From Iphione sp. A-MEVVRFRX5 (lineage: Eukaryota): 64,000 nucleotides of DNA. The stretch is from contig OZ320323.1 of the NCBI GenBank assembly GCA_976226885.1, positions 1,612,001 through 1,676,000 of the forward strand. Reading direction: 5' to 3'. Positions 1 to 64,000 of the stretch are shown here, in pieces. Made by a program: the position numbers and the translations under genes. The notes beneath the pieces were generated by a model. The model searched no databases and was not told where the DNA came from. It worked only from the letters and a program-made list of their open reading frames with translations. Numbering within the stretch: position 1 is the first letter of the stretch; every line of letters begins with the position of its first letter.

Positions 1-699
1 ACTGAGATACCATAACAGGCCATCAACAAGCACACCTACCACGCATGTTTCCCAGTATCCAGCAACACCCACAACCACCCAACATGTCACTCCAAACAAC
101 AGAGTGCAGAAGCGACTAATAAATGATGAACCCTCTGAATATGGGCATACTCAGAGCGTCCCTGAAGCTGGGGGGTTCACCGAGCTGCTCGGTCAGGCCA
201 ACAACATTGTGAATAATGTATACGGCAAACAGTACTATTGAATGGAATCATACCACCAGAACAAGCAAGTTTTTTGATAGGAGTGTTTACAAAGAAATTC
301 TGTAGTAATATTTCTGTGGTACATATAGAGGTGATGTGACTAATTTTCTTTTTTCCAGCCGACAACCTTTAGTACATTCAATTTGGACTCATATTGTTTA
401 CTTGTATTCTAGCCTGTCAATCGGATCAATAAAAATTTCATTCTTGAATGCTACTTTGTCAAACTGCACAATAAATAGGGCATACCAGTGTAAAACAATA
501 GCAACAATGCTTACAAATATGCATCAGTGCCATTATTAACGGTTAAACAAGGAAAACGGATGTTCGGTAATTATTGCACAAAAGGCCCGAATTTACATTT
601 GGAATATCTCAACCAAGTTACAGATAATCGGTTGAACGGATGTTCGGTAAATATTTGGCAAACGCACAAAATTACATTTTGGAATAAAACAACACAGTT

Positions 700-965
700 A
701 TCAAGGTAAGCGGAGAAACGGTTAATCGGTAAAACGGATGTTCAGACGTACGGATAATCAGAGAATAAAAATTTTAAAAAAAATTATTAAAAAAAAAGGA
801 ATACAGACCTGAGAAATATGGCTATTCTCAACACAGTAATCAAGACAAGCGGAGAAACGGTTAATCGGTAAAACGGATGTTCGGATGAACTGATAAATGG
901 AGGAAAAAAAAAAAAAATTAATAACGAAAATGAATACATACCTGAGAAATATGGCTACTCTCTCT
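700..965. repeat. Local imperfect duplications within the Harbinger intron/exon boundary
   Basis: caag..aagcggagaaacggttaatcggtaaaacggatgttc occurs at ~700-745 and ~841-885. cctgagaaatatggcta(t/c)tctc occurs at ~808-830 and 941-962. Confidence 0.75.
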
Positions 966-1291
966 TTAGGGCAAATGATGTGTCTGTTCCGCGGCCTCCT
1001 CTTCAGGTACGGTGTCAATCGGTGAACGACCTTGTTGAACTGGGGAATGGTCAGGCGAAAGTAGCCTCTAAAGGCCTCATTCCAGTGAAGAAAATCTTGA
1101 ATCAAGGTATGGAAAGCCCCCAAGATGTTCCGCTTCTCGATGATGGGGTCTTGCCAGTACTGATGTTTCCTCTTTTCGTTAGCAACTTCTTCCACTGTTT
1201 TCATGACAGTTGGACTGTAAAACAAGGTGTACGCTTGTTCGAAAGCCTGGAATATCACAGACGTAAGGACCAACTCCTGTGGAGTCAACAT
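942..1291 (-). pseudogene. Harbinger transposase N-terminal exon (HARBI1-like helix-turn-helix region)
   Basis: MLTPQ...FRGYFRLTIPQFNKVVHRLTPYLK...ICPKERVAIFLR matches the F..FRM...F..L...L.P.L...P.ERLAI.LR pattern. It ends at an AG|GTATGT splice donor at 942/941. No DDE exons were found downstream. Confidence 0.7.
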
Positions 1292-1719
1292 CGTGACGGA
1301 GATACGGATAATTGGGCCAAAAAACGTCCGAAGAGGGTGAATTCTTCTGTCAAAGTGGTGGTTGGCGCTAAAATTTGGCGGGTTTATAAACATCCATTAC
1401 TAGGGACTGCGTCACTTCCGTGGGAGTCCCCGGGGTTTCCCCAAGTGCAAACGCACTCAAACGCACGGACGCTACCGCATGTAAGGAACACCCCTGTGCG
1501 GCGGTCTGCAGCAGTGTACGGAGAAAAGGTGCAAAAACCAATTAGCACCCCGTCGATGCGTTTACCGCACTGAAACTCACACGCATACCAAAGCATGTCG
1601 CCGCATGTATGGAAACCGGGCCTAAGTGGAGGATTATCCCCCTAACTTAGTTTTCCCTGATCGTCATCTAGAGTAGTTGGATGTCTAGCAACTCACGTAA
1701 GCACCTCTCTCTGCAGAAA

Positions 1720-3290
1720 ACATATCCCCAATTACAAATTTCCACTCAGAGTTCCACCAGATCTTCAGCTTGGACTTTGGGTTTTCCATCAAGGCATTCC
1801 ACGCTCCTAACACTTTGTATCTTAGTGACCCCATGAATTTCGTCTGCTTAGAACGAGGCAATGAATCCTACGTGATGCACCACGCCGGGTGTTAGTAGTC
1901 CTCTTCCAGGGCAGTAGTCTCAGCTTCTGCACCACTGTCAGACCTTTCCTCTCAATGCAGTTGTCCACTTTCTCAATGCCCAAGTGCGAATGCAGTTGCT
2001 TTGTGGACAGAAAAGCGTCCGTCTCAAGCGAGAATCGGGTGCATAAACATCAGTATTCTTGCTGTCAGAGGTAGCACCTTTTTGAGTCTTCCCATCCTCA
2101 GCATCACCGCCCACATTTGCCCAAGCACCTTCCTAGCTACGTCCACACCACTTAACCTGTCTTCAACAGGGTAGCCAAGCAGCTGTAGCATTCTCACATG
2201 TTGCATCGGTTTGTCTTCTATGCTCAAATCTAGGGGGATGCCGCATGCCCCCCCTAGTGTCAGCTACGTGCATTTAGAGGCACTCAATACCAGGCTCTCC
2301 CCGTTACACCAGTTCACAACACCTTTTATTGCACTCATGGCCTTCCTTTGCAGCCCCAGATCATTCAGCATCACTGTCAGGTTGTCTGCGTAAAGGATTG
2401 GTGTTGTCGTGGCTGGTAGTGCCTTCACTTTGCCATTTATTACTAGGTTAAAAGCGCTTGGGCCAAAGGTCAACCCTTGCGGCACACCAAATTTCACCGG
2501 TCGAAGGGGCGAGTCCTCACCTGCACATCTGACAAATTGAGCCCTGTCAGATACATAGCTGTGTACCATTTTCCTTATCTTTGTACTTGTGCCTACGTCC
2601 AGCAGTCTCTCCATTACGCTTGTATGTACATGTTACACCAAATCAAAAGTTTTTATTAGGTCAAACGTGAGGATGCAGATGTATTCCCTCACATTGACTT
2701 GCTGTTGCAGTTTGCATAAAATCGAAGCGATGGCCGTGTCTGTACCTCGGTGTGCCCTAAGACCATGCTGACTCTGGCTCAGATAATCTTTCTGCTCAAC
2801 TATGGAGATAATGCTGTTTACAAACCAGTTCTCACATACTTTGCCCATCAGCGGTAGAATTGAAACTGGCCTGTGGTTTAACACTAGATTGCAGTCCCCT
2901 TATTTGTAGATGGGGACCACCCTGGCTACCTTCCAAGCTTGTGAAAACCCAGCTGACATAGTTGCATAGGTTCAAGAGTACAGGCTTGAGTACTGATGTA
3001 GGTAACCTCTCAATCCCTGACGATTTATTTACATCTATCCTCTCCACCAGTTTCCGTACCTCGATAGGGGTCGGAGGCTTTGTCAAATGTCTCCACATAT
3101 CTTGGTCTGCACGGTGGCAAAGTAACTGTTGGAGATTTCGCAAGCTTTTTAGTTGTTAAAATTGGTTGTGAGATGGCCAGTTCCTCAACAGTTTACCCCA
3201 AATCACCTTTGAATTGTCCACCCATTCTTCACTTGAGGAAATATTTTCTCTTATTTGCCTCACCATAAGTCCAGATCATGTGTTTTTTAT
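1720..3290 (-). pseudogene. CR1/L2-group LINE ORF2 (RT and C-terminus), fragmented
   Basis: ORF pieces 2832-3143, 2633-2884, 2264-2614 and 2024-2227 carry NHRPVSILP, QHGLR, FDLIKTFD, GVPQG, YADN(L). The tail reads LRYKVLGAWNAL. It is closely similar to the RT at 21195-22574. Confidence 0.9.
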
Positions 3291-3329
3291 CTTCCTCAAC
3301 ACATAGTAGAAGCAATGGCAGAAGCAGGA

Positions 3330-3857
3330 TCATATTGACCAACTAAAAGAATCCCTAAACAAACAAAACAGGGAGCTGTCAGTGCTGAAAGACAAAACAA
3401 CCAATCTGAGCATAGCGATGTCGTCTGCTATGGAGGAGATGTCAAAGCAGTGAGGAGGAGTAACCTAGAAAGGAAGCAGGAAATTCTTGACCTGGACATT
3501 AGCACGTTAGAGCTCGAGGATAGAGCAAACAAGTTAATAATTGAGGGCCTGAATGTAAGAAATCTGGAGGATGCTCGAAGCTGCATTGCGGAGATGTTAT
3601 GAGTGGTCCATGGGCGCAACATCTGGGCTATCAGCAAGATTGGGAAGACCTGCACCTTTCGTAAAATGGGGATAGTGCTTAGCTCCAAGCACCTGCGGGA
3701 TTATATCCTTAAAAAGAAAGCCATGCTGGATGGGTATGAAGAGTATAAGAAAATATTTATAAGCGAGGATATACCAGAAAGGGCCCTGGAAATTTGTAAA
3801 CGGCAGCAGAGACTCGCTATGTCCACCAGGAACAAGGGAAAAAGCACGACTGATTGA
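3330..3857 (+). pseudogene. LINE ORF1 fragment (L1-transposase/Tnp22-like RRM-CTD); the only plus-strand element piece recognised
   Basis: LEDRANKLIIEGL...RDYILKKKAML...IFISEDIP matches the CR1/L2 ORF1 pattern (N.II.GL ... I.I.EDL). One internal stop lies near 3600. Confidence 0.65.
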
Positions 3858-4111
3858 ATTGGATTTGTATTTGTACGTCGAAGGAGAAACATATTAATAT
3901 ATAGACATGCTACAAATTGATCTTGATCCGAGGAATTCTTCTACCATCAGAATATACAATGGCCTGATATTTTCTAATGATTCCCCTGGTCTTTCTCTTT
4001 TTGAAGAGTGCATTGTGTCGTTTAATGGTAATACTTACTGGAACATTGGGTTTGAGCTCCACTAGTGCAGGGGCTGGTCATATCGGTGAACAGCTTTGCT
4101 AGTTTTTCCGC

Positions 4112-4413
4112 TCACCCCTGTCGGTCTGGGTGATGGGGCTCAGGAGGAGTTTTCCCCTTGACTGTCCTGATTTTGTCCCAAAGCTCCTTGATGGTGGTCT
4201 TTTCATTGAATGAGGTGCACAATTCCTCCCAGGCTTTGGTCTTTTCCTCTGCGTATACCCGTCTGGCCCACTCCTGTGGTTTCTTGAGGGCTGATAGGGC
4301 AGCCAGGTCCCTGTGGTTGCAGTAATGTCTGGCTAGTCTATTTACTACAGCCATTACATTATGGCATCTGGTGGTGTTATACCACCAGTGGCGATTGTAG
4401 TTCACTTTTGTCC

Positions 4414-4444
<31 letters not shown>

Positions 4445-6600
4445 TTCTCCATAGCTGTTCTGAGGGCATTTGTGAAATGATTTGGGGAGATAGAGTGGCA
4501 GTCTCATATCGAGGCCCCACAAGTTCCTCGTTGATCTGATTGAAATCAGCTCTGTGCATGTTAAGTCTAGTCATGGTCATGTCAATGGAAGAGCCTGATT
4601 GGTGGGTCACTGCACCGCTATTCAGGATAGCAAGTGCTGCAGTGTTAAAGAGTTCCTGGAAGAACTTTGTTCCATTGTAGGAGTCTCTGTTGTTCTGGCC
4701 CCATGTGGAGTGATGTAAGTTGAAGTCACCCATGAGGATGTGCCATTCTTGGCACTCATTCAAGGTCCAGTCCTGAAGCTTGAAGGGGGTACCCACGTGA
4801 TGATAGAAGTTGGATATGGTTATCTCTGTTTGTCGCTTGAGGTGTAAGGTGACTTGGACTTGCTCAGTGGTTGGATTGGGGCTTGTGTGTTGATGTTTGG
4901 TGTGTGAATGGAGTGGAGTTCCTCATGAATGTGGTTAACCCTTGTTTCCCTTCTCCAGCTGTCTCAATGGTTTTGTAGCCTGGTAGTGTAAGTCCTGTGG
5001 ATTGGACTAGGATTTCTTGGACAATGAGAACGTCTTGGGTGTGTCTCACTGCATACTGCAGGATCAGCTCCTTTTGCTTCCTGAAGCCACAGATGTTCCA
5101 GGATACGATCTTGAGTTCTTTGGTTTTGGTTGTGTAGGTCCCATGGTGGGTTTTTAGGATGGGGTGGCCTAGTCTTTGGGGTGGCAGGGGACTGGTTTTT
5201 CTTACCTTCTGTGGGGTCCATGAGAAAATCCTGGCTCATTGTTCCTATAGGTGGGGATACTGCTTAGCTCCCCTAGGAGACCTTGTATCCACTTGGTTGT
5301 GTTGTTGTGATCGGAGTATGTCAATTTATTCAGTGAAGAAGGTCAGGACACGTCTGCTGGAGGCAACCCTGCTCCACATGCAGTTGCAGTCAACTGGGAG
5401 TCAGTGGTTCGCAACCTGTGCATACATCCATGGTGGTGTGTGCCTGCTCTCAGAGGTGTTCCGATGTCATGTCCCTTGATATCTGTTGCCAGGCCTGTGT
5501 TTCTGTTGGCTTGGTATGTGAGCGTCCTGCGGTCCCGGGGCCTGCATCTCTGGCTGGTCTCTGGTTGCAGTCACTGCATCTGCTCTCATCTTTGCTCGAG
5601 TTGGACTCCCTGGGTGGGTTGTATACTGTGTCTGGGGGAGTTTGTGGGGTTGTGGGTTGGAATCCTGACCTCCCTGTGGGTGGAGCCCACTCTGGTGGGG
5701 AAAGGTGTAGGATCTTGCCGTGGTGGGGAGGTGGCCGGTTTGGGGTTGGTGGCTGGTGGACACCATGTAGCAGAGCATCTGGGGTTGTTGGCCTGTTTGT
5801 TGTACCTTGACATTTGTGGAGTGTGGTCCTTTCTTGGCATCTGTTTAATGGCTGGTGGCTGGCTTGCCTGGCGATGAGAGCAGTGTGGTTCCATCGGGGT
5901 GCCATTTGGCCTTCTGCCTACTAAGCAGTTCCATGCTGTACGCCAAGTGGGGCATTTCTTGGAGTTTGCCTGGTGTGGTCCTTGGCATGCCACCCATTTG
6001 TCAGGCAGGGATACTCGGCATTCACGCGTGGGATGTTTGCCTGCGCAACATCCACATCTTGGAGTGGCCTCTTGGCACTTCTCCTGGCAGTGCCCATATT
6101 GCTGGCACTTGTAGCAGCACTGTGGGGTGGCTTTACCCTGCACACGCAATATCCCCCTAGGTCCAGTTTGTCAGTTCCTTGCAGGCTTAGAAGGGTTTCA
6201 ATTTTCATTATCCAGGTGGGCTTGTCTCTGTGATAGACTCGTTCAGCCCTACTGATGGAAGAAGTCTTCTGGCTCGATGTTGGGGTGTACACCCTTGAGC
6301 ATGTACTTGTTTTTCAAGGGTGTGAGCTGGTCCAAGTCTGCCAGGGCCTGAGCAGGCCCCTTAAGTAGGCCCACTCATTCCGTCCATAGAAGACAAAGTA
6401 GTTTCTGTCAGGACAGCATTTGTCTAACACAGGTTGGGGGTAGTCAGGTTCCTCTGTAGCGAAGAAGACTGTGATCACCCTACGGGGCTTCCTTCCCCTC
6501 TTCTTCCTGATGACGGTGGTGAATTCGTTGTCGCTCATCTCCAGGGCAAGGTCTTTTGGTTTCTCTGGTTTCACCCATGGTCCTATTCATTTTCTTATGG
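4112..6600 (-). mobile_element. I/Jockey-group LINE, 5' half only (gag-like ORF1 + APE), frameshifted and 3'-truncated
   Basis: ORF1 has three Cys/His knuckles (CYKCQQYGHCQEKC, CGCCAGKHPTREC, (C)VACQGPHQANSKKC) at 5586-6149. APE motifs: VQE (4864-5049), GDFNLHHSTWG, SSIDMT (4377-4796). No RT follows. Confidence 0.85.
4417..4444. repeat. (GT)14 microsatellite inside the LINE ORF2
   Basis: Perfect GT run read directly from the sequence. Confidence 0.95.
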
Positions 6601-6884
6601 GTCTCTTTATCCTAAACCATTTGCTTTTAAGAGCACATTTGCATGTGTGGCTGATAGTAATTGCTGATGCTTTATATATTCCACTAGTTTTATCTTCAGC
6701 TGTTGTGTATATTCTTTTTTTCACCCACGCATACCTTGCCTATCCTGGTTATCATTCTTTCTACCGGTTTCCTACCCCACGATGTAGTTTTGTTCAACAA
6801 AATGATGCCATAGCTTGTTACTGGCAAAATCAATACCTTTAGGATCATTAGAGTTGTATCAGCTGTCATGTATGCACATGTTCG

Positions 6885-9210
6885 TCAGAGCATATATTTC
6901 TTCTGTTTGAATTTATTGATGAGCCTCATACAATGATTATTGTATGTTAATTTATCATCTATCAATACCCCAAGATAATTATAACACTTATATTGCTCTA
7001 TTTTTTCACCTTTTACTGTGACACCCCCATAATATTCTCCTTCTACCCCTCCTCTTGACGAACACAGCATAAATTTACATTTTCTCACATTTAGTAACAG
7101 CCTGTTAGTCTTACACCAATCGTGCACGGATACCAGTTCACTATTCATTCTCTGCAAGCAGTCCTTCCAGGTTTCTGCTTGGACCACCATGGCTGCATCA
7201 TCTGCATATAGGTACATCTTACTATGGGTACATTGGTTGGGCATATCGTTTATATAATTGAGAAACAATAGTGGTCCAAGCAGACTGCCATGGGGGACGC
7301 CACACACTACTTCTTTAAGACTAGACACTTTAGCGCCTATCTGTACCCTCTGCTTCCTATCTGTGAGATAATGTTTCAGCCATGGTATCCATTTCCCTAG
7401 GCCTAGATTATTTACCTTCATGAGTAGTATATGACGTTGGAGGCTGTCGAACGCTTTGGCAAAACCTAAGTATAATATCCCAACTCTTTTTTGTTTATTT
7501 ATCCCTGTTGCTATTTGCTGTGTCAGGGACATTGTGGCCATCATTGTTGATTTGCCTGATCGAAACCCATATTGGAAGGCAGTGAGTATATTGTTACTCT
7601 CCAAATATCCAATAATTTTACTATATACCAGTCTCTCCAGAACTTTGGATGAACATGGTAGTACACTTACCGGACGATAGTTGCCAGGTGACGATTTTAT
7701 CCCCCCCTTTAAACAATGGCTTAAACCTAGCTATATTCTAGGCCTGTGGAACTATGCCTGTTTCTATCGAGAACCTAACTATATGTGTCAACTGTTTATA
7801 TAGTGTTCTCATGGCTAATTTCTTAACTGCGGTCCTTACATGTTCCATACTGGAGGCCTTATCATCCTTAATTTTGTTAATGGCTTTCAATATCTCAATT
7901 ACAGAAACCTCTGGGAGATCCATGTTCCCCTTTGGTACTATATCCTCTTCAGTCACCATCCCAAGTCTTTCATGAATGTCTTTTCCTATGTTCACAAAGA
8001 ATTCATTTAGCACTTCTACTATGTCTTTGTTAACTGCCGCCTTTCCTTGCCATTCTAGTCTCTGTATATTAACCTCCTCCTTCTTACCCATGATCATATG
8101 CCCTATTGTCCTCCAATACCTCTAGGGGTCACTCATGTTGTCATTTACCAGCTGCTTTAGATAATTTCCCTTATCTTTAATGATAACACCATTTGTGGCC
8201 CTTCTTGTTGCTGTCATTTCTCCCCAATTTCTTTTGCTACCACAGTCAATTGCCTTTTTTAATGTTAGCTGTGATTTTCTCATTGCCCTTCATACATTAT
8301 TATTAATCCACCCCATTAAATCCACCCCATTAATTCCTCTAATTTCCACGTTGTCGAGTACTCTGTACTGGTGCAAGTCTTTCTAGAGCAGATAATATAA
8401 TTCCCTCCCATATTGATACTAAGTCATCTACATTATTCTTTTCATAAAATTGAGACCAGTCTGCTTCTGTCAGGATATTACAGAAACGTTATTTCCTAAC
8501 TTCCGTCTTTAGAGTCACTTCTAATTTCTGCCTCATGAGTTATGGTTCCCTTGATAAGATGGTGATCACTGAGTCCTTTTTTGACTACAGACACGTTTGT
8601 GTCTATTAAGCCCCTTTCAAACCATGGATCTATCAGTGAACCGCTCCCCTGGACCTCTCTGGTATTTCACCTTTACTTGTTGTTTAAGGCCCAATCCGCC
8701 CATAACAGTCATTAGATTTATTGTTACTTTATTCTTTGGGTTGGCCAGCTTTGTTTAGGTCACCTAATACTATTACTTTCTCCTGAATTGCTACCTTCAT
8801 TAGCTCCTCCTCTGTCCATTTAAGCCCTTCTACTATGTCCTCATTTGGGGGGCGATAAATACATAAAAAATGGGTATTATGGGTCCACCTCCATATCATA
8901 GTCTTACATGCAATGCTTCTATGTTGTTGTCATCATGGGTGCACAGTACCTTTATCTCTACCATCTTCTTGTGGTATATGAGAATTCCACCACCTCGCTT
9001 TCTGGTTTTTCTGTCTGCTCAATAACATACATACTCCTCCAAGTTGGTCATTTCTGGTTTGTGTCCCTTTCTTTGTTCCCCTATGTGTCAATATTATCCA
9101 TGTTTTCCCTGCAAATTGTGAAATTTCCACCACCATATACATATGAATAATGATGATATGTTCAGAAATGAATATTAGATTAGCTTTGGTTAGTATAGTT
9201 ACTAACATAT
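6885..9210 (-). pseudogene. CR1/L2-group LINE ORF2 (APE + RT), degraded
   Basis: RT: QYGFR, YLGFAKAFD, GVPHGSLLGP, YADD, YLGV (6885-7604); NYRPVS near 7680; linker 7738-8097; degenerate APE ~8400-9210. Confidence 0.9.
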
Positions 9211-9264
9211 GCAGGAAGATATTTAGGTAGCTGTCCTTTACCTAAACCGGTTACAATATGGGCC

Positions 9265-9503
9265 TCATTGGAGGCCAAACAGCAGATCCTTTGATCTGGA
9301 TGGTTTGCTATGTGAGTGGTCATGGCACTGTATGCATAGTCTTTGCATCATCCTACTAGTGATGTCCCCGCCCGACACATGTTCAATGAATCCCTTAAGG
9401 ACTTTTACCATGTGTATCCGCCCTTTAATATTCAGATGGCAGTCATCTTCCAATTCATTGGTCCTCATAGTAACCCTGCCTGCAGACCTTCTGTGATATA
9501 TAT
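9265..9503 (-). pseudogene. SGNH-hydrolase ORF, C-terminal part (split from 14283-14770 by the Ngaro insertion)
   Basis: YHRRSAGRVTMRTNELEDDCHL contains the block-V D-x-x-H motif. It aligns with GYLTHQRASGRTTVRLHDLEDGCHL at 35920-36126. Confidence 0.8.
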
Positions 9504-9560
9504 ATAACTGATTGACACGTTGACACAGGATTGGCGACAGTCCGGAGGCAACTACCTCCC
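9504..9560. repeat. Split direct repeat B2 (copy of 9878-9934)
   Basis: 57 bp, ataactgattgacacg...ctacctccc, present twice. Confidence 0.95.
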
Positions 9561-9655
9561 TTTATTCTGATTACATGGACAATCAATGGCGATACAGGTG
9601 AACACTGAACAAACATTGGTATGAACACAACAACACAACCAAGGAAAAAAAAAAA

Positions 9656-9880
9656 AGAAAAGAAATCAACTCACTTGGGACACAGTCCCACTACCCAGAC
9701 CTTAGTCTGCCTTCACTCTGTGCTCTCTGAACTGCTACTGACTGGGAGACCTGGGTCCCCTCCCCTGGTGTAGCACTTCCCCACCAGGTGGCCTCACATG
9801 CATAGGGGAGGTGCTGCCTCCCTTGGCTGGCTGCTCAGTTATACTCACCTAAGGGAGTTACCTCCCTTAGCTGCCACATA
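9656..9880. repeat. Split direct repeat A2 (copy of 14072-14296)
   Basis: 225 bp; appears identical to A1 by eye. Confidence 0.95.
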
Positions 9881-9925
9881 ACTGATTGACACGTTGACAC
9901 AGGATTGGCGACAGTCCGGAGGCAA

Positions 9926-10897
9926 CTACCTCCCAAACCCCCCCACGAGGAGATTGGGGAGGGAACTTGCTAGGGCTAACTCCTGGGAGATCCTGGACTC
10001 CATGGGCTTGGCCAGATATAACAGAACTGCGGTTGAGGACCAGTCCCCCCTCGCCATTATATCCTCAAGGGGAACCCCGCAACCATGGAGGAAAGCTGCC
10101 CCCGACCTCCTGAGGGAGTGGGCCCCTAGCCCTGGTAATGGCAACCCGACGGCGGTCCCTAGGGACTTGATGAAACCTAGGAGGTCCCTGTAAAAAAGCG
10201 GTCTGTCCCTGCCATCCCCCCTCCAACTAAACAGTGGAGCCTCTGGGTTGGGACACCCAACCTCCCCTAACATCCTTTCCACCAGCCTTGCTGCACACAA
10301 ACAATAGGGAGCTGTCCTGGCTAGGGGTATCATGAACACCCTTTCCCTAAATTGGATAGTCTTAGAGGACTTAACACTGAGCATCACCCCCCATGGGTAA
10401 AAACACACATCTTTCCTCCGGAGGAAGTGGCCACCGCCCCTGCCTTCCCCCTCTGGGACCAGGTTAGATTTCCTGAGCAACGATCTGAAACCCACCACCA
10501 AACAACACCATAGGCATCTCTCCCTGGGGCTGGAGAGGTCTACCTTTTTGAACATTCTTAATAGGTCTCCCACTGAGAACGTAACCCTAGAGACTTCTGG
10601 GTCCCCCAACTCACGCCGGACCCCCTGTAGGGTAAATTCCACCAGGAATTCCTCCCTAAGGGCACATGGGTACCCGAGGGACTTATGCAGGGATACCACA
10701 CCGGACACATAGTTATTCACTGTCGAGAACTTCTTCCCCTGATTTGCCAGAAAAGCTATGAACCTGCACATATTCCTTGTGGAGCATGGTACTGGCTCCA
10801 CCCCTATCGTGGTGCAGAACTGAAAATACAAACGCCACTGGCTGCTCCTAGTCTTCCACATATTGGGGGCGAATGCTGTCACTCTGTACCTGTCCAC
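9926..10897 (-). CDS. Tyrosine recombinase (Ngaro element 1)
   Basis: Open 323-aa ORF with FRSLLRKSNL, SKT, HSLRRSGA and GDWSSTAVLLY, i.e. the R-K-HxxR-W-Y catalytic set. Confidence 0.93.
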   Translation of the reverse strand: MDRYRVTAFAPNMWKTRSSQWRLYFQFCTTIGVEPVPCSTRNMCRFIAFLANQGKKFSTVNNYVSGVVSLHKSLGYPCALREEFLVEFTLQGVRRELGDPEVSRVTFSVGDLLRMFKKVDLSSPRERCLWCCLVVGFRSLLRKSNLVPEGEGRGGGHFLRRKDVCFYPWGVMLSVKSSKTIQFRERVFMIPLARTAPYCLCAARLVERMLGEVGCPNPEAPLFSWRGDGRDRPLFYRDLLGFIKSLGTAVGLPLPGLGAHSLRRSGAAFLHGCGVPLEDIMARGDWSSTAVLLYLAKPMESRISQELALASSLPNLLVGGFGR

Positions 10898-12542
10898 TTG
10901 CCTGTCCAGCTCCTGCGCTGCCCGCTCTGCTGCATCGCACTGGACCCCTGCAACATAGATAAGGGGGGATCTCCTTACCAGTGTACCCCAGTCTGGACAC
11001 CAAGTCTGCCGTGTAGTTCAATTTGGAAGGAATATATCTCACCACTAGTCTACAGTCGGCTTGGAGGCATAACCAGAAGAGTTCCCTCAGCATGCCCATT
11101 GACACGACATTGTTGCTCTTACCTTTGTTGACCCCCACAACAATTTGGCTGTTGTCACACATGAGGAGTACCTTCTTTCCCCCCCAGGCTGCGCCCCACC
11201 TACCAACTGCCACCAAAATCGGCCACAATTCCAAGTTACTGATGTGGGCCTCACCCGGGGTCTGTACTGCCCCCATACAATGCCCGTGAGGGTCGGCTGT
11301 TTGGCCCATCCCTACCCAACCCTTCCCCCAAGGGACGCAAAACCAGTCCCCCTCCCAATGCCCCCCTCCCCCCCAAAGTGAGGCATCTGTGTACACCGGG
11401 GCCTCCACCCAGCACTCACTGCCTGGGATCCTGGTCGTCCCATTGAACCATACACTTAATCTATCCCACCATTCTAGGTCTGCTGCCATCTCTCTGCCCA
11501 CTGTCACCTGCTTCTTGCCTTGTGGGAAGTCTTTCAATACCTTAAAACACCTTTGGCTGAAGACCCTCCCCCCATGAACCAGAGGGATGCAGTGGGCCAA
11601 CAGGCCACAAAGCCTTTGTAGTTGCTTCTTTGTTGTACGCTTCCTGTTCCTGAAGAAGGCCATCTCTTCCCTGAGCCTCACTAACTTATCCTGCGGTAGA
11701 CGGACCTCCATCTTCTCGGAGTCCACAAGCAACCCTAGGTATCTCATGACCCTGGAGGGGGATCTTACTTTTTTGAAAGAGATTTGGAAACCCAGGGCTC
11801 TCAGAACCCGGTGGAGGGCCAGCTGTGCCTCCCTGCAGGCTTCCTCTGTCCTCCCATGTACCAAGAAGTTGTCTAAGTAATTTACCACATTCCGGTAACC
11901 CATGTTACCCATTACCCTGACCACTGCGTTGGATAGCCTAGTGAATATGCTTGGGGCTGCCTTGGTCCCAAAGCACAGGAAGTTGTCCACCATATATGTG
12001 ACTTCATCCCCTTCAAAGGCCCAGGCCATTCCCATATTCCCCCTGTTTGTGGGATGGACGGGGACTACCCTGTAGGCGTTCGCCAGGTCTGTCACTGCCA
12101 TGTAGTCCCCCTGCTGTATAAACCCCATCACTGTTTCAACCGAGTTGTACTTAAAGGGGGTTGAGGTCTCTGACATATGATTGTTTACCGCTATCCCCAC
12201 TGGCCTACTGCAATCCGTAGTGATCCTGTATGAGTCCCCCTCTTTTGGTACCACCCCTAGAGCATGAACATTGTGCGGGCACCTGCCCACCACGGAGACT
12301 CTCCCTAATTCAATGTCCCTCCTCAGGGTAGTGGATACAAATTCCCTAGCTCTGCTATCCCTTGTAGCTGAATTGTAATTCCTGCACTCATACCCAGGTA
12401 TCTCTGCCCCTTCATCTATTACCTTGAAGCCCTGCGACACCCCCTCCAGGAGGAAGTCTGCATCCTCATCCATGGCACCCCCTTGGCATAGCATAGCCTC
12501 CCAGGCCCGCAGGTTCAGGGGGGAGGGGACCCCCCCCACCAT
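10848..12542 (-). CDS. RT-RNase H (DIRS1-type), with YLDD changed to YLDN
   Basis: DLANAYR, LCFG, YLDNF, YLGL; RNase H motifs YTDAS, ISNLEL, CDN, N..AD.VSR. It overlaps the YR ORF. Confidence 0.93.
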   Translation of the reverse strand: MVGGVPSPLNLRAWEAMLCQGGAMDEDADFLLEGVSQGFKVIDEGAEIPGYECRNYNSATRDSRAREFVSTTLRRDIELGRVSVVGRCPHNVHALGVVPKEGDSYRITTDCSRPVGIAVNNHMSETSTPFKYNSVETVMGFIQQGDYMAVTDLANAYRVVPVHPTNRGNMGMAWAFEGDEVTYMVDNFLCFGTKAAPSIFTRLSNAVVRVMGNMGYRNVVNYLDNFLVHGRTEEACREAQLALHRVLRALGFQISFKKVRSPSRVMRYLGLLVDSEKMEVRLPQDKLVRLREEMAFFRNRKRTTKKQLQRLCGLLAHCIPLVHGGRVFSQRCFKVLKDFPQGKKQVTVGREMAADLEWWDRLSVWFNGTTRIPGSECWVEAPVYTDASLWGGGGHWEGDWFCVPWGKGWVGMGQTADPHGHCMGAVQTPGEAHISNLELWPILVAVGRWGAAWGGKKVLLMCDNSQIVVGVNKGKSNNVVSMGMLRELFWLCLQADCRLVVRYIPSKLNYTADLVSRLGYTGKEIPPYLCCRGPVRCSRAGSAGAGQASGQVQSDSIRPQYVED

Positions 12543-12596
12543 GTGTTGGGACCATCCTACACAAGTTATCCCCTGTGTTGTCCCCTTAGCTGATTG

Positions 12597-14063
12597 CTAT
12601 TCCCTGGCCGAACTCTGGTCCTCCTTCTTCGTACCCCGGTCCTTGCACCATCTGCCCTTGTGGGTACCCTTACATACCGCACAAATATGCCTCCTGCTGC
12701 ACTGCCCTTGACACTCCGAGAAGTTCCACTTGCCACACACATCTTGAGGGACATCGACCCAGTTCCCCTTCTGCTGTTTCTGGGGGCCCTTCCCTTTTTT
12801 GAGGAGGTTCCTCACTCCGGTGGTGTGTTCCCCCCCCAGGTACGTATAGTCCCCCTCCTTATCTGCAGCTACATGCCTGGGCAAGATACCATACATGACC
12901 TTAGAAGTTACAAAGTGCTCATATTTGGCCAGTTGTTCTGAGGGGAATTCGTTTCCCATAGCCTTAAGGGCAATGTACTTGACATGCTCCAAGTAGGGCC
13001 CAACGTCTTTCCTCGCCCTTACCAGGGTGTCTGCCACAGACAGGCAGCCATACATCAATTCCCTATATGTAAGCTCTTCATGAGACTTACCCCCAATGTA
13101 TCTCTCTGGCCTCATCCAGTGAGGGGCCTTCTTTTTGTCCTTGTCCTCCTGGCGTGGTATACACACCGCGATCGGGACGGGATCCGTCTCCTCCACTGCT
13201 AGGGTACCAGGCTGTGGCCCCTTACCTGCAGCCTGGAGGGCTCCTAATGTGGCCTGCAGGACATGGTTGTATTGGCCATCCTGACTTCCCAGGGATAATC
13301 CAGCCAGTCCCTGAAGAAGACACTGGATCGCAGCCGCATGTTGTGGTCCCGAGGTCCCGAGCTGGTTCCCGGCGGTCCCACTAGCACCGCTAGCCGCTGG
13401 TAGGGTCCCCGGCGTCACTCCAAGCTGGTTCCCGGCCGTTGCCTCAATGGTACTGCCCTGTAGGATGGTCCCCGTCGTCGCCCCGAGCTGGTTCCCGGCG
13501 ATCAGGCCGAGGTTGTTGAGGGAACCCATGGTCCCGAGGTGGTTCCCGGCGGTCACAGTGGTGCCGCCGGCTGCTAGCAAGGTGCCCGTAGTCCCACCGT
13601 GGTGGTTCACGACGGTCGCGCTGGTGCCGCTGGCAGGTGGATTGGTCCCTGCTGTCCCGTCACGCTGGGTCCCAGTGGTCCCACTTGTGTCGCCGACCGG
13701 TCGCGAGGTCCCCTCTGTCCCGCTGGTTGCCAGGGACGCTTCACTCGTTGCCGGGGACGCGGTAGTTCCCGCGCTCCACCAGACCGTCTCCTCTCTCTCC
13801 TTCTTCTTCTTCTGAATCCATCTCTCCAGGGCTTCGATCTCCCCTTGCTCTTGCCTGTCTAGCTCTTCTGCCTCTTTTCTCAATTGTTGGAGGTAGTCCC
13901 CCTTGGCGCCCTTCGGATCTTTTGCGTCCTTTGGCCCCTTCTGTTTCCTCCTGGTAGTGACACCGGTAGTCTCCTCCTGAATTTCCTCCTCCATTCTGCC
14001 AGCTTGGCAGCCACTGTCTAGAGGCGGTAGGTGTTTCTTGAGGCAGCTGCTGCAGTTCTCCAT
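12597..14063 (-). CDS. Gag-like ORF1 of Ngaro element 1
   Basis: Open 488-aa ORF: coiled-coil N-terminus, Gly/Thr-rich repeats (TAGNQLG), and a C-terminal CGKWN..C...C..RHICAVCKGTH zinc finger typical of DIRS/Ngaro gag. Confidence 0.85.
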   Translation of the reverse strand: MENCSSCLKKHLPPLDSGCQAGRMEEEIQEETTGVTTRRKQKGPKDAKDPKGAKGDYLQQLRKEAEELDRQEQGEIEALERWIQKKKKEREETVWWSAGTTASPATSEASLATSGTEGTSRPVGDTSGTTGTQRDGTAGTNPPASGTSATVVNHHGGTTGTLLAAGGTTVTAGNHLGTMGSLNNLGLIAGNQLGATTGTILQGSTIEATAGNQLGVTPGTLPAASGASGTAGNQLGTSGPQHAAAIQCLLQGLAGLSLGSQDGQYNHVLQATLGALQAAGKGPQPGTLAVEETDPVPIAVCIPRQEDKDKKKAPHWMRPERYIGGKSHEELTYRELMYGCLSVADTLVRARKDVGPYLEHVKYIALKAMGNEFPSEQLAKYEHFVTSKVMYGILPRHVAADKEGDYTYLGGEHTTGVRNLLKKGKGPQKQQKGNWVDVPQDVCGKWNFSECQGQCSRRHICAVCKGTHKGRWCKDRGTKKEDQSSARE

Positions 14064-14296
14064 AAAGAGTGAGAAAAGAAATCAACTCACTTGGGACACA
14101 GTCCCACTACCCAGACCTTAGTCTGCCTTCACTCTGTGCTCTCTGAACTGCTACTGACTGGGAGACCTGGGTCCCCTCCCCTGGTGTAGCACTTCCCCAC
14201 CAGGTGGCCTCACATGCATAGGGGAGGTGCTGCCTCCCTTGGCTGGCTGCTCAGTTATACTCACCTAAGGGAGTTACCTCCCTTAGCTGCCACATA

Positions 14297-33680: not shown

Positions 33681-33699
33681 TAGGACTAGCTCATCTCTG

Positions 33700-44135: not shown

Positions 44136-44140
44136 TAGTT

Positions 44141-49956: not shown

Positions 49957-50429
49957 GGCGGTGCGTTCAAATTCTCAACCGTCACGGCTTATGTTAGCGT
50001 CTCTCTCAAACGGCTTCACTGGCAGGGCTACACGCAGTGGTTGGCGGTGACGCGCGTCACCCTTATATTACCTGCCAGCTAGTGCCTCCCTCTGGCGTGA
50101 TAATTCGGAACACTCCAGTTCCCCACCTACCCATACTGGTACATAATATACCAGTAGTATATAGGCACATTTCTTTATCAAGAAAATTTGTTTACTAAAT
50201 GGTGCGCATTCGTTATAATACGGTCACTTACCTTATCCCTTATTCTATTTCTACCTTTTTATAGTACCTTTCTGGTCCTGACAGCGTTATAGAGTGACAC
50301 CCATCTCACAATACATGTTCTGCGTCATTTGCCACTTTTCCCTGAAACAAGAACGTATTTACAGTCAGTTCTCTCATATTTCACATATTCATTCTCATCC
50401 CTCCACCATACCATACTGTTCTCCCATAG

Positions 50430-51898
50430 TGTCCTCCTCCACCTTCCCCATTAGTTCATTCTTCAGTTCTGTCAGTAGACGACCTAATACATTCTTGCCC
50501 TTGTACCCAAGAGTCCTTTTTCAGCAGATGTCCCACACCAGCGGCAGCTCCCCAATAGTTTGACTTACTTGCACTTATTAAGTCTCGCTCTCCGGTACTT
50601 AACAGATCGTCCCTTGCTTCAGAAAGATCAGCAAATTTCGACTTCAGTACTTGTTTCATACACTCCTCTCTTTTGTCCTCCCAGTCCTCAGTCGCTATGA
50701 TTCGTTTCCCTAAACTGACCACCTCCAGGGGATCAGTCGCTTGCAATATTTCGTCCCGTGTCTTAAAGTCCTTGGCTTCCTCCGCCTTCTTGGCTTGGTA
50801 TGCATGCTCTGCGCTCAGGTAGACCCTATCCTCGTGCCTGAATGCAGCCGGGTACAAGTTGCTGAGCGAGGCGTGGTGGCCTTGAAACACCCGTTTTGCC
50901 TTCTCTATGGTAAGGTCACTTGGAAGATTATGTAACTCATGCGCTTTATATGGTTGGTCGTCGACATATAAAGTCAAACCTTTCATACTCGCTTTCCGTC
51001 CTTGTGCCTTGGCATGATTCATAATCGTCCTCATTTCTCCATGTGTAGTCCGCTGCTTGGGAGTTAGATCATCCGACAGCCAGATGTTGCTGCCCTTTAG
51101 CTTATTTCTTCTTTTCATCACAGCCGCCTTGTCTTCTTGAGAGTGGAATTTAACAAGTAAATCCCTTTTACCTCGAACAGACTCCTTGTTGATCCGGTAG
51201 CACCCTCCTATCGCATGTTTGTTTACTTTCACATCTACCTTCGTCAGCAAGGTTTGGACATCATCCGCTAGTTGTTGCCCCCTTGTCTCTGCCAGTCCAC
51301 TTACTACAATTGTATTTGATCTCATAGCCTTGTCCATTTGTTTGATCGCTTTCCCCTGCCTCATCAATTCTTTCTTTAGTAATTCGTTTTCCTTCTTTAA
51401 CCTCGATGTTTCACACTTCAAGTTCTCATTCTCTTCTGCAAGTTTTCCCTCCTTCTCATGTACCTTTTTTAAGTCACATTGGATCCTTGCTACCTCTGAT
51501 TTCATACCCGTCCAACCTTCTTGGGCCCCTTTCACGGATTCTTCCATATAAGCCATCCTCTGTTCACTCTTTTGTAGCCATACTAGAATTCTTTCTGTGT
51601 CAGACTTGATAGATTTCATCATTACTGGTGTCCTATGGGACCCTGGATTCCCCTTACCATGATGAACTGGTGATGACACTTTCCTCTTCCTTTTTTTCTT
51701 AGCTCTTTGCTGTTCGTGCTTCTCCGATACCTCCGACTCATAATCACCTTTTTGTTCTTCGTCCAGTTTATCCCCATTATTTCCTATTGTATTCAATATT
51801 TCAGTTATTGTCTCTGCAACTTCAATTCTTCCCTGCGCTTCATTATAACCACTTCCATCTGTATTCTTCTCACTCTCTTGCCCTTTTTGACTCGCCAT
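50430..51898 (-). CDS. LINE ORF1-type protein (coiled coil + RRM-like/CTD) fused to a C-terminal NADAR (YbiA/DUF1768) domain; frameshift just before the last helix
   Basis: ORF1 part: RSNTIVVSGL, LLVKF, NIWLSDDLT. NADAR part: LSNLYPAAF, YLSAEHAYQAKK, ILQATDP...LGK, W....EECMKQVLKSKF, LLSTG, YWG. A shifted frame continues GKNVLGRLLTELK. Confidence 0.85.
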
Positions 51899-52329
51899 AG
51901 TCGTACCGTCTGTAACCCTCGTATTGCGCTATTTTTAGAGTCCCCCTGCTGCACCGCGTATGTTTTCCGTATTTTCACATGTAAAATGCTTTAAAACTCC
52001 CGTACTGACCTTCAATGTACCGTAGTTTACACTACTGTCCCTTTCCAGGTATGTCACTTTACGTATCCTACTCCAAATACAATGCTATCATGTCCTTTGT
52101 ATCCTCCAATTCATATGAAACAATTTTAAAAATACATGCCTCTTCTTTGTGGACAAATTCAGAATGTGGTTCCACTAATGCCAGAAGCCCATCTATTTTG
52201 CTCTGTGGGAAACAAAAATATACTTCAATGTTTGACGTGGCTAGGCCTTTGCTCTGTAGGTGCTACGAGTCAAGTGTATAACCAGCCTTAGGTTCCCCCT
52301 TATAAGCTCATTTTTCTTTTGCTTGTTGT

Positions 52330-52430
52330 CATGGTGCAGTGTCCTTAAGGTCTCACACTGTAGTGTGTTCTTCTTGGTTATATTACTTACTTCTATAACA
52401 CGGTTTCGACTACTGTCTCATCAGGCACCA
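52330..52430 (-). ncRNA. Hammerhead-ribozyme-like core downstream of the Penelope-like ORF
   Basis: UGGUGC-CUGAUGA-GAC(AGUA)GUC-GAAAC, with a complementary GCACCA ~65 nt downstream. No canonical NUH cleavage triplet was found by eye. Confidence 0.45.
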
Positions 52431-52501
52431 ATGTTGATGGATATTTTGATGGTAAATAGAATACCTTTGCTAACAATGTTTGTTATTTTTTTGTGACGAG
52501 G

Positions 52502-53545
52502 CTAAATGGTATTCTGATACTCACCATCCAGTATGTTGAGTCCATAAGGTGATATGGATCTCAATCTGTGTATCCATTTCTGTTCTATTTTATTTCTTAA
52601 TGCTACTGATTTCTCATTCTTTGGTGAAATGTGGATAAAGTCTAGTACTTTTATCTCTAGGTCTTCTAATTGTTTATGGTCATTTTTATTAAAGTATTCT
52701 GTGATTAGGTTTTTCTTCTGATATTTTTTGATGTCATGAAAGTGATTTTTGAATCTGTCTTTAATCCTTAACTTGGTTTGTCCCACATAGTGAACATTGC
52801 ATTTTTTACACGATATCGCGTATATTAAGTTGCTGCTGTTGCAGTTCATTTTACATTTTGTTTCATATTCTCTTTTTGTATAGGTGTTTGTAATCTTCTC
52901 AGTAGTTTTTATTGTTGTGCAATGTATGCAATTCTTTGTTTGACAGTTCTTTGTTTCTGATTTCCTGGTGGGTTTCTCATTATTCTCTTCATAGCTTATT
53001 AGCCTGGCTCTGACTAGATGGTCTCTTAAGTTTTTGGGTCTTCTATATGCTGTCATGAACCCTGCTTCTCCGATATCTTTGGTTGTTTTCGATTTCTCTA
53101 GTAGTTCCCAATTCTGTTTGATGAGTGTCTCCACCTCGTATGAATCTGGTTGGTATTTGGTTATAAAGATTGATTTCCTTGTCTTTTGTTAATCGGTTTG
53201 TGCTGTATGCACTTTTCTCAGGAGTTCTCCCCTCTCCTTTTTAGATGCTTCATGGAGTGCCCTGGCTATAATATTTATAGGGTACCCTCTCTCTAGGAAA
53301 TTTACAGATTTGACTAGGCTGTGCCTTATGAAGTCTGCGTTCTTGCTGCAGATCCTTTTTATTCTCAGGAATTGACCATAGGGTATATTGTCTTTCATTT
53401 TTCTTGGATGAGCTGATCTATAGTGTAGGACACTGTTGAATAGGTCCGTGTTTAGGTGTCCATGTTCTGTTCTTGTTACTGTCGTGTCTAGGAAGTCTAC
53501 TTTAGTGTTTGAGGTGTAAACAGTGAAAGAGATCATATCGTGTTA
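52502..53545 (-). mobile_element. Penelope-like element 3' part (RT thumb + GIY-YIG endonuclease)
   Basis: ISFT...VDFLDTTV, LHYRSAHP, IPYGQFLRIKRICS; then C..KNC.HC, NLIYAISCKKC...YVGQT, RF.NH, EQKWIHRL...P.GLN. Confidence 0.92.
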
Positions 53546-59869: not shown

Positions 59870-62800
59870 CCCTATAGGAAATACAGTTTATTTACTACTT
59901 TGAACACAACTGATGGGTGTTACTCTTGCTCGTCTAAGAATATTAGATCAAGTACGGCCCTACTAGTTTTATGTGTGATGGTTGGAGACTTGATGAACTG
60001 AGTTAGCTTAAACTTTGAACTCATTTTCTGGATAATATCCCGTCTATTGCTCACTTTACCCCAATCTACATTGAAGTCACCACCCAGTACAGTTTCTGTG
60101 ATCCCTTTCCTTTTGAACTTGCTGAGAGTCGTTTCCAGATATTTCACTAGGGCCTCAATGTCTCCACCTGATGGAAAGTACAGAACACTGAAAGCTAAAG
60201 GTTTTCTAAATTTAGATCTTAGTATCAACCACATTGCCTCGATATTGTCATTTACAATATTGTGATCTGGACATTTCTCAGCTACTACTCCCTTTTCTGT
60301 ATATATCAATAGACCCCCCCCCCCTTTCATCTTTTTGAGCCCTGATCTATCTTGCCTGTATATAGAGTATCCATCTTGCTTTAGATAAGCACTTGGTAAT
60401 GTAGTACATAGCCATGTTTCTACTATCCCACACACTCGCGGTTTGTGATCTCTTAAGAACCAACTTATGTTGTCAATTTTTGGCAATATACTTCTTATGT
60501 TCCAGAACACGAATGTCCTCCCCTTCATGATGACAAAGGTCGTTTAGCACATTAATTTTAGATTAAGAAAGTTTATCAATGATATTAACATATAGTTATC
60601 ATTTCAAAAGTAAGAGAACTTCCCCTTGATATTGAGGACAATCCTAAAAAGTGCCTATTTTATGATTCATGTACATATATGACAGAATTAAGCAAACAAT
60701 CGGTACCTTTTATTATGCCAGTTTTCTGATTCACAGCCTGGTATAGTTTGATCCGAACATACGCCTGATCAAGATGTTATGCCGTAGCAGAGAGAAATCC
60801 ATTTTTACACATGAGCATCATACTTCAAAATCATTGATGATAAACCTTTCTACTTCGGTTTCCCACATTTCTTGTACTAGCGGAACAACTCCCATGTTCT
60901 CACAGATTAACTCTGGGCGAAATATAGCATTGTTGTCATGCCATTCATGAATTGGGTAACATGTGTCAGGAGTGGGCAGACCATTTTGTTCATTCATCGC
61001 TGTGCATACATTGTTAAATGTACCAATTTGGACATTCAATTCATACTGCAAGCGAGGAATTATAGTGTTTAACAGTTTGCCATATATTGGTAGAAAAAGC
61101 ACCTTATGTGTACCCGGGACATGAAGATTGTGTGATATTTTGTCAAAGTAATTCCACATGTCATAATCAAGCGCTAAGTATGTTTCATATACCAAGTTGT
61201 TGTTATTCCCATCATTTACGACCAGTGAGTGGATCCCTGTGTGAAATATTGTGAGTTCATAGTCAGGACTTGGTACCATAGGCATCATGTTTGTGATGTC
61301 TTCTACTGTAATCCCATAGGTCGATACTATAGTGCACGGACACAGGTTGTCAAATCTGGCCCTGAGTCCATGTCCAATTGCCAGGCCCCGGTCATCTGTG
61401 ATGAGCTGTATACGCGGCCACATCCCTATAGGAAATACAGTTTATTTACTACTTTGAACACAACTGATGGGTGTTACTCTTGTTCGTCTAAGAATATTAG
61501 ATCAAGTACGGCCCTACTAGTTTTATGTGTGATGGTTGGAGACTTGATGAACTGAGTTAGCTTAAACTTTGAACTCATTTTCTGGATAATATCCCGTCTA
61601 TTGCTCACTTTACCCCAATCTACATTGAAGTCACCACCCAGTACAGTTTCTGTGATCCCTTTCCTTTTGAACTTGCTGAGAGTCGTTTCCAGATATTTCA
61701 CTAGGGCCTCAATGTCTCCACCTGATGGAAAGTACAGAACACTGAAAGCTAAAGGTTTTCTAAATTTAGATCTTAGTATCAACCACATTGCCTTGATATT
61801 GTCATTTACAATATTGTGATCTGGACATTTCTCAGCTACTACTCCCTTTTCTGTATATATCAATAGACCCCCCCCCCCCTTTCATCTTTTTGAGCCCTGA
61901 TCTATCTTGCCTGTATATAGAGTATCCATCTTGCTTTAGATAAGCACTTGGTAATGTAGTACGTAGCCATGTTTCTACTATCCCACACACTCGCGGTTTG
62001 TGATCTCTTAAGAACCAACTTATGTTGTCAATTTTTGGCAATATACTTCTTATGTTCCAGAACACGAATGTCCTCCCCTTCATGATGACAAAGGTCGTTT
62101 AGCACATTAATTTTAGATTAAGAAAGTTTATCAATGATATTAACATATAGTTATCATTTCAAAAGTAAGAGAACTTCCCCTTGATATTGAGGACAATCCT
62201 AAAAAGTGCCTATTTTATGATTCATGTACATATATGACAGAATTAAGCAAACAATCGGTACCTTTTATTATGCCAGTTTTCTGATTCACAGCCTGGTATA
62301 ATTTGATCCGAACATACACCTGATCAAGATGTTATGCCGTAGCAGAGAGAAATCCATTTTTACACATGAGCATCATAGTTCAAAATCATTGATGATAAAC
62401 CTTTCTACTTCGGTTTCCCACATTTCTTGTACTAGCGGAACAACTCCCATGTTCTCACAGATTAACTCTGGGCGAAATATAGCATTGTTGTCATGCCATT
62501 CATGAATTGGGTAACATGTGTCAGGAGTGGGCAGACCATTTTGTTCATTCATCGCTGTGCATACATTGTTAAATGTACCAATTTGGACATTCAATTCATA
62601 CTGCAAGCGAGGAATTATAGTGTTTAACAGTTTGCCATATATTGGTAGAAAAAGCACCTTATGTGTACCCGGGACATGAAGATTGTGTGATATTTCGTCA
62701 AAGTAATTCCACATGTCATAATCAAGCGCTAAGTATGTTTCATATACCAAGTTGTTGTTATTCCCATCATTTACGACCAGTGAGTGGATCCCTGTGTGAA

Positions 62801-64000
62801 ATATTGTGAGTTCATAGTCAGGACTTGGTACCATAGGCATCATGTTTGTGATGTCTTCTACTGTAATCCCATAGGTCGATACTATAGTGCACGGACACAG
62901 GTTGTCAAATCTGGCCCTGAGTCCATGTCCAATTGCCAGGCCCCGGTCATCTGTGATGAGCTGTATACGCGGCCACATCCCTATAGGAAATACAGTTTAT
63001 TTACTACTTTGAACACAACTGATGGGTGTTACTCTTGCTCATCTAAGAATATTAGATCAAGTACGGCCCTACTAGTTTTATGTATGATGGTTGGAGACTT
63101 GATGAACTGAGTTAGCTTAAACTTTGAACTCATTTTCTGGATAATATCCCGTCTATTGCTCACTTTACCCCAATCTACATTGAAGTCACCACCCAGTACA
63201 GTTTCTGTGATCCCTTTCCTTTTGAACTTGCTGAGAGTCGTTTCCAGATATTTCACTAGGGCCTCAATGTCTCCACCTGATGGAAAGTACAGAACTCCGA
63301 AAGCTAAAGGTTTTCTAAATTTAGATCTTAGTATCAACCTCATTGCCTCGATATTGTCATTTACAATATTGTGATCTGGACATTTCTCAGCTACTACTCC
63401 CTTTTCTGTATATATCAATAGACCCCCCCCCCCTTTCATCTTTTTGAGCCCTGATCTATCTTGCCTGTATATAGAGTATCCATCTTGCTTTAGATAAGCA
63501 CTTGGTAATGTAGTACATAGCCATGTTTCTACTATCCCACACACTTGCGGTTTGTGATCTCTTAAGAACCAACTTATGTTGTCAATTTTTGGCAATATAC
63601 TTCTTATGTTCCAGAACACGAATGTCCTCCCCTTCATGATGACAAAGGTCGTTTAGCACATTAATTTTAGATTAAGAAAGTTTATCAATGATATTAACAT
63701 ATAGTTATCATTTCAAAAGTAAGAGAACTTCCCCTTGATATTGATGACAATCTTAAAAAGTTCCTATTTTATGATTCATGTACATATATGACAGAATTAA
63801 GCAAACAATCGGTACCTTTTATTATGCCAGTTTTCTGATTCACAGCCTGGTATAGTTTGATCCGAACATACGCCTGATCAAGATGTTATGCCGTAGCAGA
63901 GAGAAATCCACTTTTACACATGAGCATCATAGTTCAAAATCATTGATGATAAACCTTTCTACTTCGGTTTCCCACATTTCTTGTACTAGCGGAACAACTC

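Follow-up and report, generated by a model that had tools for sequence, protein, structure and literature searches.

Among the described sources of PIWI-interacting RNAs (piRNAs), the closest in layout to the locus reported here are the flamenco (flam) and flam-like clusters of Drosophila. These extend over hundreds of kilobases, are rich in transposable elements (TEs) inserted one way, hold most families singly and have a promoter near a host gene. For flam itself, the accessible parts of the reports give 49 of 52 families present once, a spliced precursor, an Inr-DPE promoter 1.7 kb proximal to DIP1 and a seat in the ovarian soma, and uni-strand cluster candidates can be called from TE strand bias (PMC10643416, PMC4120762). 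The window analysed here (the whole 64,000-nucleotide stretch C26:1,612,001-1,676,000 of a 1.18-Gb animal genome; coordinates are relative to it unless a contig is named) is the central third of a block of about 200 kb, -91,300 to +110,300 (C26:1,520,700-1,722,300), that resembles the Drosophila clusters in size, TE content, one-way orientation and singleness of most families, and has a candidate promoter near a host gene. The polarised TE block is a real, bounded feature, and it is a good candidate for a uni-strand piRNA source, though not a flamenco-like one in the narrow, Gypsy-driven sense: the available text attributes the bias of flam-like clusters to Gypsy alone (PMC10643416), whereas here it is common to long interspersed nuclear elements (LINEs), DIRS/Ngaro, Gypsy and Penelope elements.

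Other systems offer partial parallels, again as far as the accessible text of the sources goes. Mammalian pachytene clusters and the read-through piC-DoG clusters involve uni-strand precursors from bidirectional promoters and host transcription that captures antisense TE fragments (PMC11615739). In the pachytene case, however, a pair of clusters is arranged back to back, and a DoG cluster lies downstream on the strand of its gene, whereas our block is upstream and divergent. The same source describes uni-strand piRNA production from planarian and slug clusters, to which the present block, known from its DNA sequence, may be likened. In polychaetes, 18 transcripts over 8 kb, rich in TE fragments, have been called cluster-like (PMC8556966); the clusters of Capitella teleta are small, the largest under 20 kb and none of flamenco size (PMC8915122), in contrast to the roughly 200 kb found here. 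In the accessible text of these invertebrate studies no data on TE orientation were found. Introns, too, carry LINEs and long terminal repeat (LTR) elements in excess against the direction of transcription, which has been explained by selection that removes sense copies; however, the sense share there is about 28% at its strongest, for L1 (PMC3088655), compared with 10% in our block, which no plus-strand host coding exons flank. The available text of PMC6128900 held nothing on cluster orientation.

Within the window, Pfam TE domains were assigned to 17 of 60 minus-strand open reading frames (ORFs) and to none of 44 on the plus strand, the minus set comprising reverse transcriptase (RT), APE endonuclease (EN), integrase, tyrosine recombinase, GIY-YIG and NADAR domains (input: 104 of the 117 window ORFs of at least 95 aa, 13 redundant array copies being excluded). 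A library-free count of non-overlapping ORFs of at least 200 aa gave 26 minus and 1 plus in the window, the sole plus ORF overlapping a minus-strand Harbinger exon, and 61 minus and 7 plus in the block. After merging, the window contains 14 retroelement insertions on minus and 1 on plus (two-sided p = 0.00098), which bears out the 14:1 orientation claimed in a preliminary description of this DNA. That description had counted the Harbinger transposon as a minus unit; its transposase is indeed on minus but its MADF gene is on plus, so it is not a clean minus unit and was left out of the 14. The p of about 0.001 given earlier is thus reproduced, but alone it fails a genome-wide look, for 18,424 windows at 0.001 would produce about 18 such cases if all were equally TE-rich. 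Consequently, the result is carried by the units of the block outside the window, 13 minus to 2 plus in the predicted direction (one-sided p = 0.004), and by the block total of 27 minus to 3 plus (p = 8e-6), with minus units making up 97% of the unit span. Over the 200 kb analysed on either side of the window, the bias extends about 91 kb to the left and about 46 kb to the right and then ends, an outcome that leaves the proposed uni-strand cluster standing. The suggestion that a plus transcript would be antisense to every element has to be narrowed to 27 of the 30 units, since three are on plus and Harbinger and a Polinton are bidirectional.

The units derive from 45 hand-curated pieces of the block, reduced to 30 groups by rejoining elements that a nested insertion had cut in two and by pooling pieces with a similarity of at least 75% over at least 120 nt. 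Harbinger, the Polinton and a 2.06-kb array at -76 to -55 kb were excluded, having genes on both strands or an orientation without tool support. For two small pieces the orientation was judged by eye alone: one is an RTE-type endonuclease at -87 kb that forms a unit of its own, the other a Penelope-like fragment that belongs to a merged group. The tally is conservative, since border overlap joined two nested DIRS elements to their hosts, and the ratio is probably closer to 29:3. The TE query library started from sequences of the block region, to which ORFs of the first 12 blocks were added, and it could therefore overlook plus elements from families absent from it; its result is matched by the library-free ORF count. 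Local duplicates occur in four of the 30 groups, although family singleness is a weak criterion given that low-copy families are common in this genome. Twenty of the 30 units are LINEs and two are Gypsy elements. Of the three units on plus, one is a young DIRS element (-37.8 to -33.2 kb) and the other two are fragments, of a Penelope at -53 kb and of an ORF1 at 3.3-3.9 kb. A 209-aa coiled-coil plus ORF at -3.4 kb (L001:6580-7206; L-numbers denote pieces of flank or comparison DNA) could be a fourth plus-strand TE unit.

TE proteins cover 50% of the block and 63% of the window (values inflated by the inclusion of self ORFs), as against 12% and 2% of the flanks and 2-32% of random blocks. The left edge is sharp in a plot of cumulative A-T skew, which has its maximum at -98 kb and declines steadily as far as about +80 kb; T makes up 31.5% of the plus strand and A 25.4%. 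Stop density is uneven along the block, without a clean trend that would indicate an age gradient, and an Rfam search of the window and of L009, L010 and L018 gave no matches. A telomeric retrotransposon array was considered and rejected: 1.5 Mb separate the block from the contig end, and its content is a mixture of LINEs with DIRS, Gypsy and Penelope elements.

As controls, we have used 13 comparison regions, of which six were random, two picked for RT hits and five picked for shared sequence; 12 of them have no comparable block. The majority strand accounts for 50-77% of bases in 11 regions and for 91% in one with only 4 units. Five mixed regions have a TE-protein cover of 27-39% and a majority strand of 55-77%, which indicates that TE density does not create polarity. 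Adjacent units lie on one strand in 22 of 28 cases in the block and in 18 of 44 in the six random 100-kb blocks (Fisher p = 0.003). The exception is a second polarised block on another contig, at C22:0.49-0.61 Mb (492,000-605,000; L042-L053), which adjoins a 60-kb satellite and is plus-stranded for 97% of its bases (11:2 after merging, p = 0.022). A piece of about 700 bp is found mainly in these two blocks, in equal orientation relative to the local elements. The region C26:2.14-2.40 Mb also has fragments in common with the block, but its strands are mixed (56% plus). The genome has five PIWI-domain loci. One of them has a last exon with up to 80% similarity to piwi-like 1 proteins; this exon, on the minus strand at L087:3039-3257 (C1:40.06 Mb), happened to lie in a random control block, and its sequence is not diagnostic of a phylum.

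To the left, the block is bounded by a host gene with minus-strand TOG-domain exons (Pfam XMAP215_CLASP_TOG) and a start codon at about -93,060, which we take from its N-terminus to be CKAP5/ch-TOG. The first block element, at -91,340, is 1.7 kb from this ATG, and between the two is a single-copy, CpG-rich segment (L010:7000-7822) with a CpG observed/expected ratio near 1. A promoter-like segment spans -92,480 to -92,180. It is a candidate promoter by virtue of its motifs: CACGTG (E-box) at -92,282, ATTGG (CCAAT box) at -92,256 and CGGAAAT (ETS-like) at -92,250. The minus-strand donor for the host first exon is at -92,384, and a plus-strand consensus donor, GGTGAGT, is at -92,196, in the same form as the donors of NSFL1C, the next plus-strand gene to the right; this motif occurs by chance in 2.3% of 150-nt stretches. 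At human bidirectional promoters NF-Y and GABP/ETS motifs are enriched, according to the accessible text of PMC10887517. By contrast with the flamenco promoter, the candidate promoter here would be the back side of that of a housekeeping gene, a comparison that for our locus draws on nucleotide sequence. No plus-strand host coding exons were recognised between -92 and +144 kb by a crude splice score with candidates judged by eye (one listing in part), so that the check for a host intron, like that of the flanks, does not refute the cluster proposal.

The right edge of the block, where the minus elements cease, is near +110 kb. Beyond it, from +110,500 to +144,300 (L015-L019), are a plus LINE, a plus env-bearing Gypsy, a plus Gypsy fragment and one minus LINE fragment. 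NSFL1C, identified by named matches, has its ATG at +144,383, about 34 kb past the block, mapped coding exons 0.2-2.6 kb apart and, at +143.8 to +144.3 kb, a separate CpG-rich region with a CCAAT box. The opposite polarity of the stretch from +110,500 to +144,300 may reflect a smaller convergent transcript, as may a donor-like site that faces away from NSFL1C at its promoter. A minus-strand coding gene from the NSFL1C promoter was rejected, the 56-aa ORF there being without a relative and the 102-aa ORF without a usable Atlas match.

The explanation that we favour, and consider rather probable, is that the CKAP5 promoter also drives, on its divergent side, a long non-coding RNA that reads the plus strand of the block and serves as a uni-strand source of piRNAs in the manner of flamenco. 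RNA polymerase II would fire both ways from the CKAP5-like promoter, and the plus transcript would be spliced at the -92,196 donor and run on through the block. Sense insertions would be removed, their termination and splice signals cutting the precursor, while antisense insertions would be kept as a source of silencing guides; the long plus RNA would then enter PIWI processing to give transposon-silencing piRNAs. Such a plus-strand transcript would account for the sign of the bias, for its sharp left edge and for its presence in several element classes, and we lean towards the piRNA version of it because the block is filled with TEs, its bias exceeds the strongest intronic figure found and no coding gene spans it. 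The uni-strand cluster of the preliminary description is in this sense partly supported, by the extended bias and by a plausible plus promoter and donor at the left edge; a giant non-coding or 5'-untranslated-region intron, weighed below, retains some probability.

Several observations nevertheless weigh against a piRNA source. The young DIRS element on plus at -37.8 kb has identical repeats and open ORFs, and the non-LINE elements alone are 8:2 (p = 0.11). The dominance of LINEs in the block differs from the Gypsy-only bias of flam-like clusters, as given in the accessible text of PMC10643416. The promoter motifs were identified post hoc, and in this genome young TEs, too, are marked by CpG peaks. 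Plus-strand AATAAA is not depleted, with 77 occurrences vs 78 for shuffled hexamers and 19 sites in the first 40 kb, and enrichment of donor motifs was looked for on the plus strand of the block and not seen. Moreover, the NSFL1C promoter also has its divergent donor-like site, albeit a weaker one, suggesting that such donors may be common. Lastly, exon and CpG scans over 596-760 kb of C22 found no host promoter at the right end of the second block; the one CpG peak read there, at 632-635 kb, consists of repeats.

Sequence cannot tell a piRNA source from a spliced-out intron, and the same promoter and donor would serve if the block were a giant intron, purged of sense insertions, of either a long non-coding RNA or an NSFL1C transcript with a 5' non-coding exon 236 kb upstream of its ATG. 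Introns do show an antisense bias for LINEs and LTR elements, and about 40 nt before the NSFL1C ATG there is, by eye, an AG with a pyrimidine-rich run. However, the strongest mammalian figure in the accessible text is 27.7% sense, for full-length L1 near exons (PMC3088655), and at that rate, which may not be that of this genome, three or fewer sense units in 30 has p = 0.018. NSFL1C, furthermore, has its own CpG-rich, CCAAT-bearing region and closely spaced coding exons, and the +110 to +144 kb stretch, which such a transcript would also cross, is plus-biased (ORFs of at least 200 aa 5:0; units 3:1) and hence sense to it. The left neighbour is on minus, and no plus gene has coding exons on both sides of the block. 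All told, an intron that is not a piRNA source seems unlikely, though it deserves to be kept in view.

Three further explanations were weighed. LINEs cut T-rich strands and might therefore insert co-directionally with earlier LINEs, tandem duplication then multiplying them, so that no transcript would be needed; the T-rich plus strand, the two long arrays, the several local duplicates, the 20 LINEs among the 30 units and the lack of significance of the non-LINE units are all in keeping with this. Yet duplicates were joined before counting, and TTTT/R sites favour plus by only 64:36, a null that gives p = 0.0015 for the LINE count of 19:1 and p = 2e-4 for all units together. Besides, the commonest LINE type has relatives on all large contigs, mostly as isolated copies, and TE-rich controls are mixed; we thus hold target-site preference to be improbable. 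Replication polarity would require that forks from an origin at the CKAP5 promoter cross the block one way and bias integration. The skew change does coincide with the promoter region, and human L1 integration has a fork-direction bias, but that effect is modest and specific to L1 and the CKAP5 side of the promoter is mixed, making this explanation very improbable. That the window is a chance pick among thousands is harder still to believe. One random block has 71% on one strand and a subtelomeric one 77%, and with an equal TE content throughout, p = 0.001 might be attained by some 18 windows; on the other hand, the 13:2 count outside the window went in the predicted direction, the block edge coincides with the promoter-like segment, and the block p of 8e-6 becomes about 0.05 when 5,900 such 200-kb blocks are allowed for, even with 30 elements in every one.

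If the block is indeed a piRNA source, it would be a defined one of 200 kb, for which start site, first donor and strand are predicted, where the accessible text of the Capitella study has none above 20 kb (PMC8915122). Divergent housekeeping transcription would then be a route to cluster birth beside read-through, and the trap layout would not be tied to enveloped Gypsy elements. Should it be only an intron, it would still be an unusually strong case of orientation selection. A more ambitious picture is conceivable but doubtful: a master piRNA locus on the scale of flamenco in an invertebrate other than an insect, born from a divergent housekeeping promoter, trapping all retroelement classes, having a small convergent counterpart at NSFL1C and having exchanged sequence with its sister block on C22. 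In the literature searched, by title and start of abstract and with most subscription journals outside its coverage, we found neither a flamenco-size TE-antisense cluster in an annelid nor one divergent from CKAP5.

The elements of the window are described here from left to right. The right part of Harbinger (1..1626) has a transposase exon on minus at 761-1396 and the end of its MADF gene on plus; its copies genome-wide are 86-94% identical. In the full element (window 1-1626 plus L001:7800-10000), the opposite-strand MADF gene seems partly interleaved with the transposase intron. There follow a minus LINE RT fragment (1690..3160; RVT_1) and the only plus retroelement piece of the window, a broken LINE ORF1 fragment (3310..3900) that matches another ORF1 (tblastn E 5e-14) and has Atlas neighbours including a cluster with Baculo_FP_2nd on 31% of members. 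All further elements are on minus. A broken LINE at 3900..6400 combines an endonuclease (Exo_endo_phos_2 at 4380-4922) with a zinc-knuckle-like ORF1 and is presumably of the I group, as labelled in the preliminary description and as its CCHC pattern suggests. The LINE at 6440..14700 has RT, EN and a middle ORF that we call esterase-like (SGNH) on the strength of its GDS motif; it had no Pfam match. It is interrupted by Ngaro/DIRS-type element 1 (9504..14296), whose split direct repeats of 225 and 57 bp are 100% identical and which has (AT)n on both flanks, in agreement with the symmetric (AT)n target noted earlier. Further LINEs are at 15000..19400 (RT, esterase-like ORF and a NADAR-bearing ORF1) and at 21100..24745 (RT, EN and esterase-like ORF), the latter with a 5' part 87% like a copy at -32.7 kb.

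A young Gypsy with identical 109-bp LTRs occupies 24746..33147 and contains a nested LINE with a 944-aa EN-RT ORF (27208..30643). The Gypsy has 23 other copies at 97-99% identity (23 candidates scored); the 3.4-kb LINE is carried by the window copy alone, the others being uninterrupted at that point. Together with the identical repeats of Ngaro 1, these features imply that active families continue to insert into the block, for the most part one way. To the right are locally duplicated LINE 5' fragments with a piece of about 400 bp that is otherwise found mainly in the C22 block (33700..38500), a broken LINE with RT, EN and a triplicated esterase-like ORF (39800..45100), Ngaro/DIRS-type element 2 (45790..50130), which is 95% identical to a copy on C10, a LINE ORF1 with a NADAR domain (50430..51930) and a Penelope-like element with GIY-YIG (52230..53545). 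A 1.55-kb tandem array of a LINE EN/esterase-like fragment, counted once, runs from 53546 to the window end at 64000 and on to about +68,330; the parent copy of its unit is at -18 to -13.8 kb. Of 150 scored candidates, 128 match the commonest LINE type of the block; they are spread across all large contigs, mostly as single copies, and 14 of the 128 are in the block, all on minus.

Outside the window, the uncounted 2.06-kb tandem array (L008:3700 to L006:4800) has about ten copies and very low CpG; a minus-strand piece of it, without a database match, is reminiscent of a Crypton N-terminus. The broken Polinton, at about +84 to +110 kb (L013-L015), is split by nested DIRS elements and has integrase and polymerase pieces on minus. 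Its other genes, some of them on plus, are named tentatively, and the region includes a 389-aa plus ORF with a signal-peptide-like start that belongs to no Pfam family. At about +142 kb, L018:8120-8760 is a single-copy, stop-riddled but coding-like minus-strand segment without an Atlas match, possibly a decayed gene copy. Finally, a 669-bp perfect inverted repeat (L016:3864-4532 and L017:411-1079), its arms 6 kb apart and enclosing LINE fragments, is probably a young non-autonomous DNA transposon.

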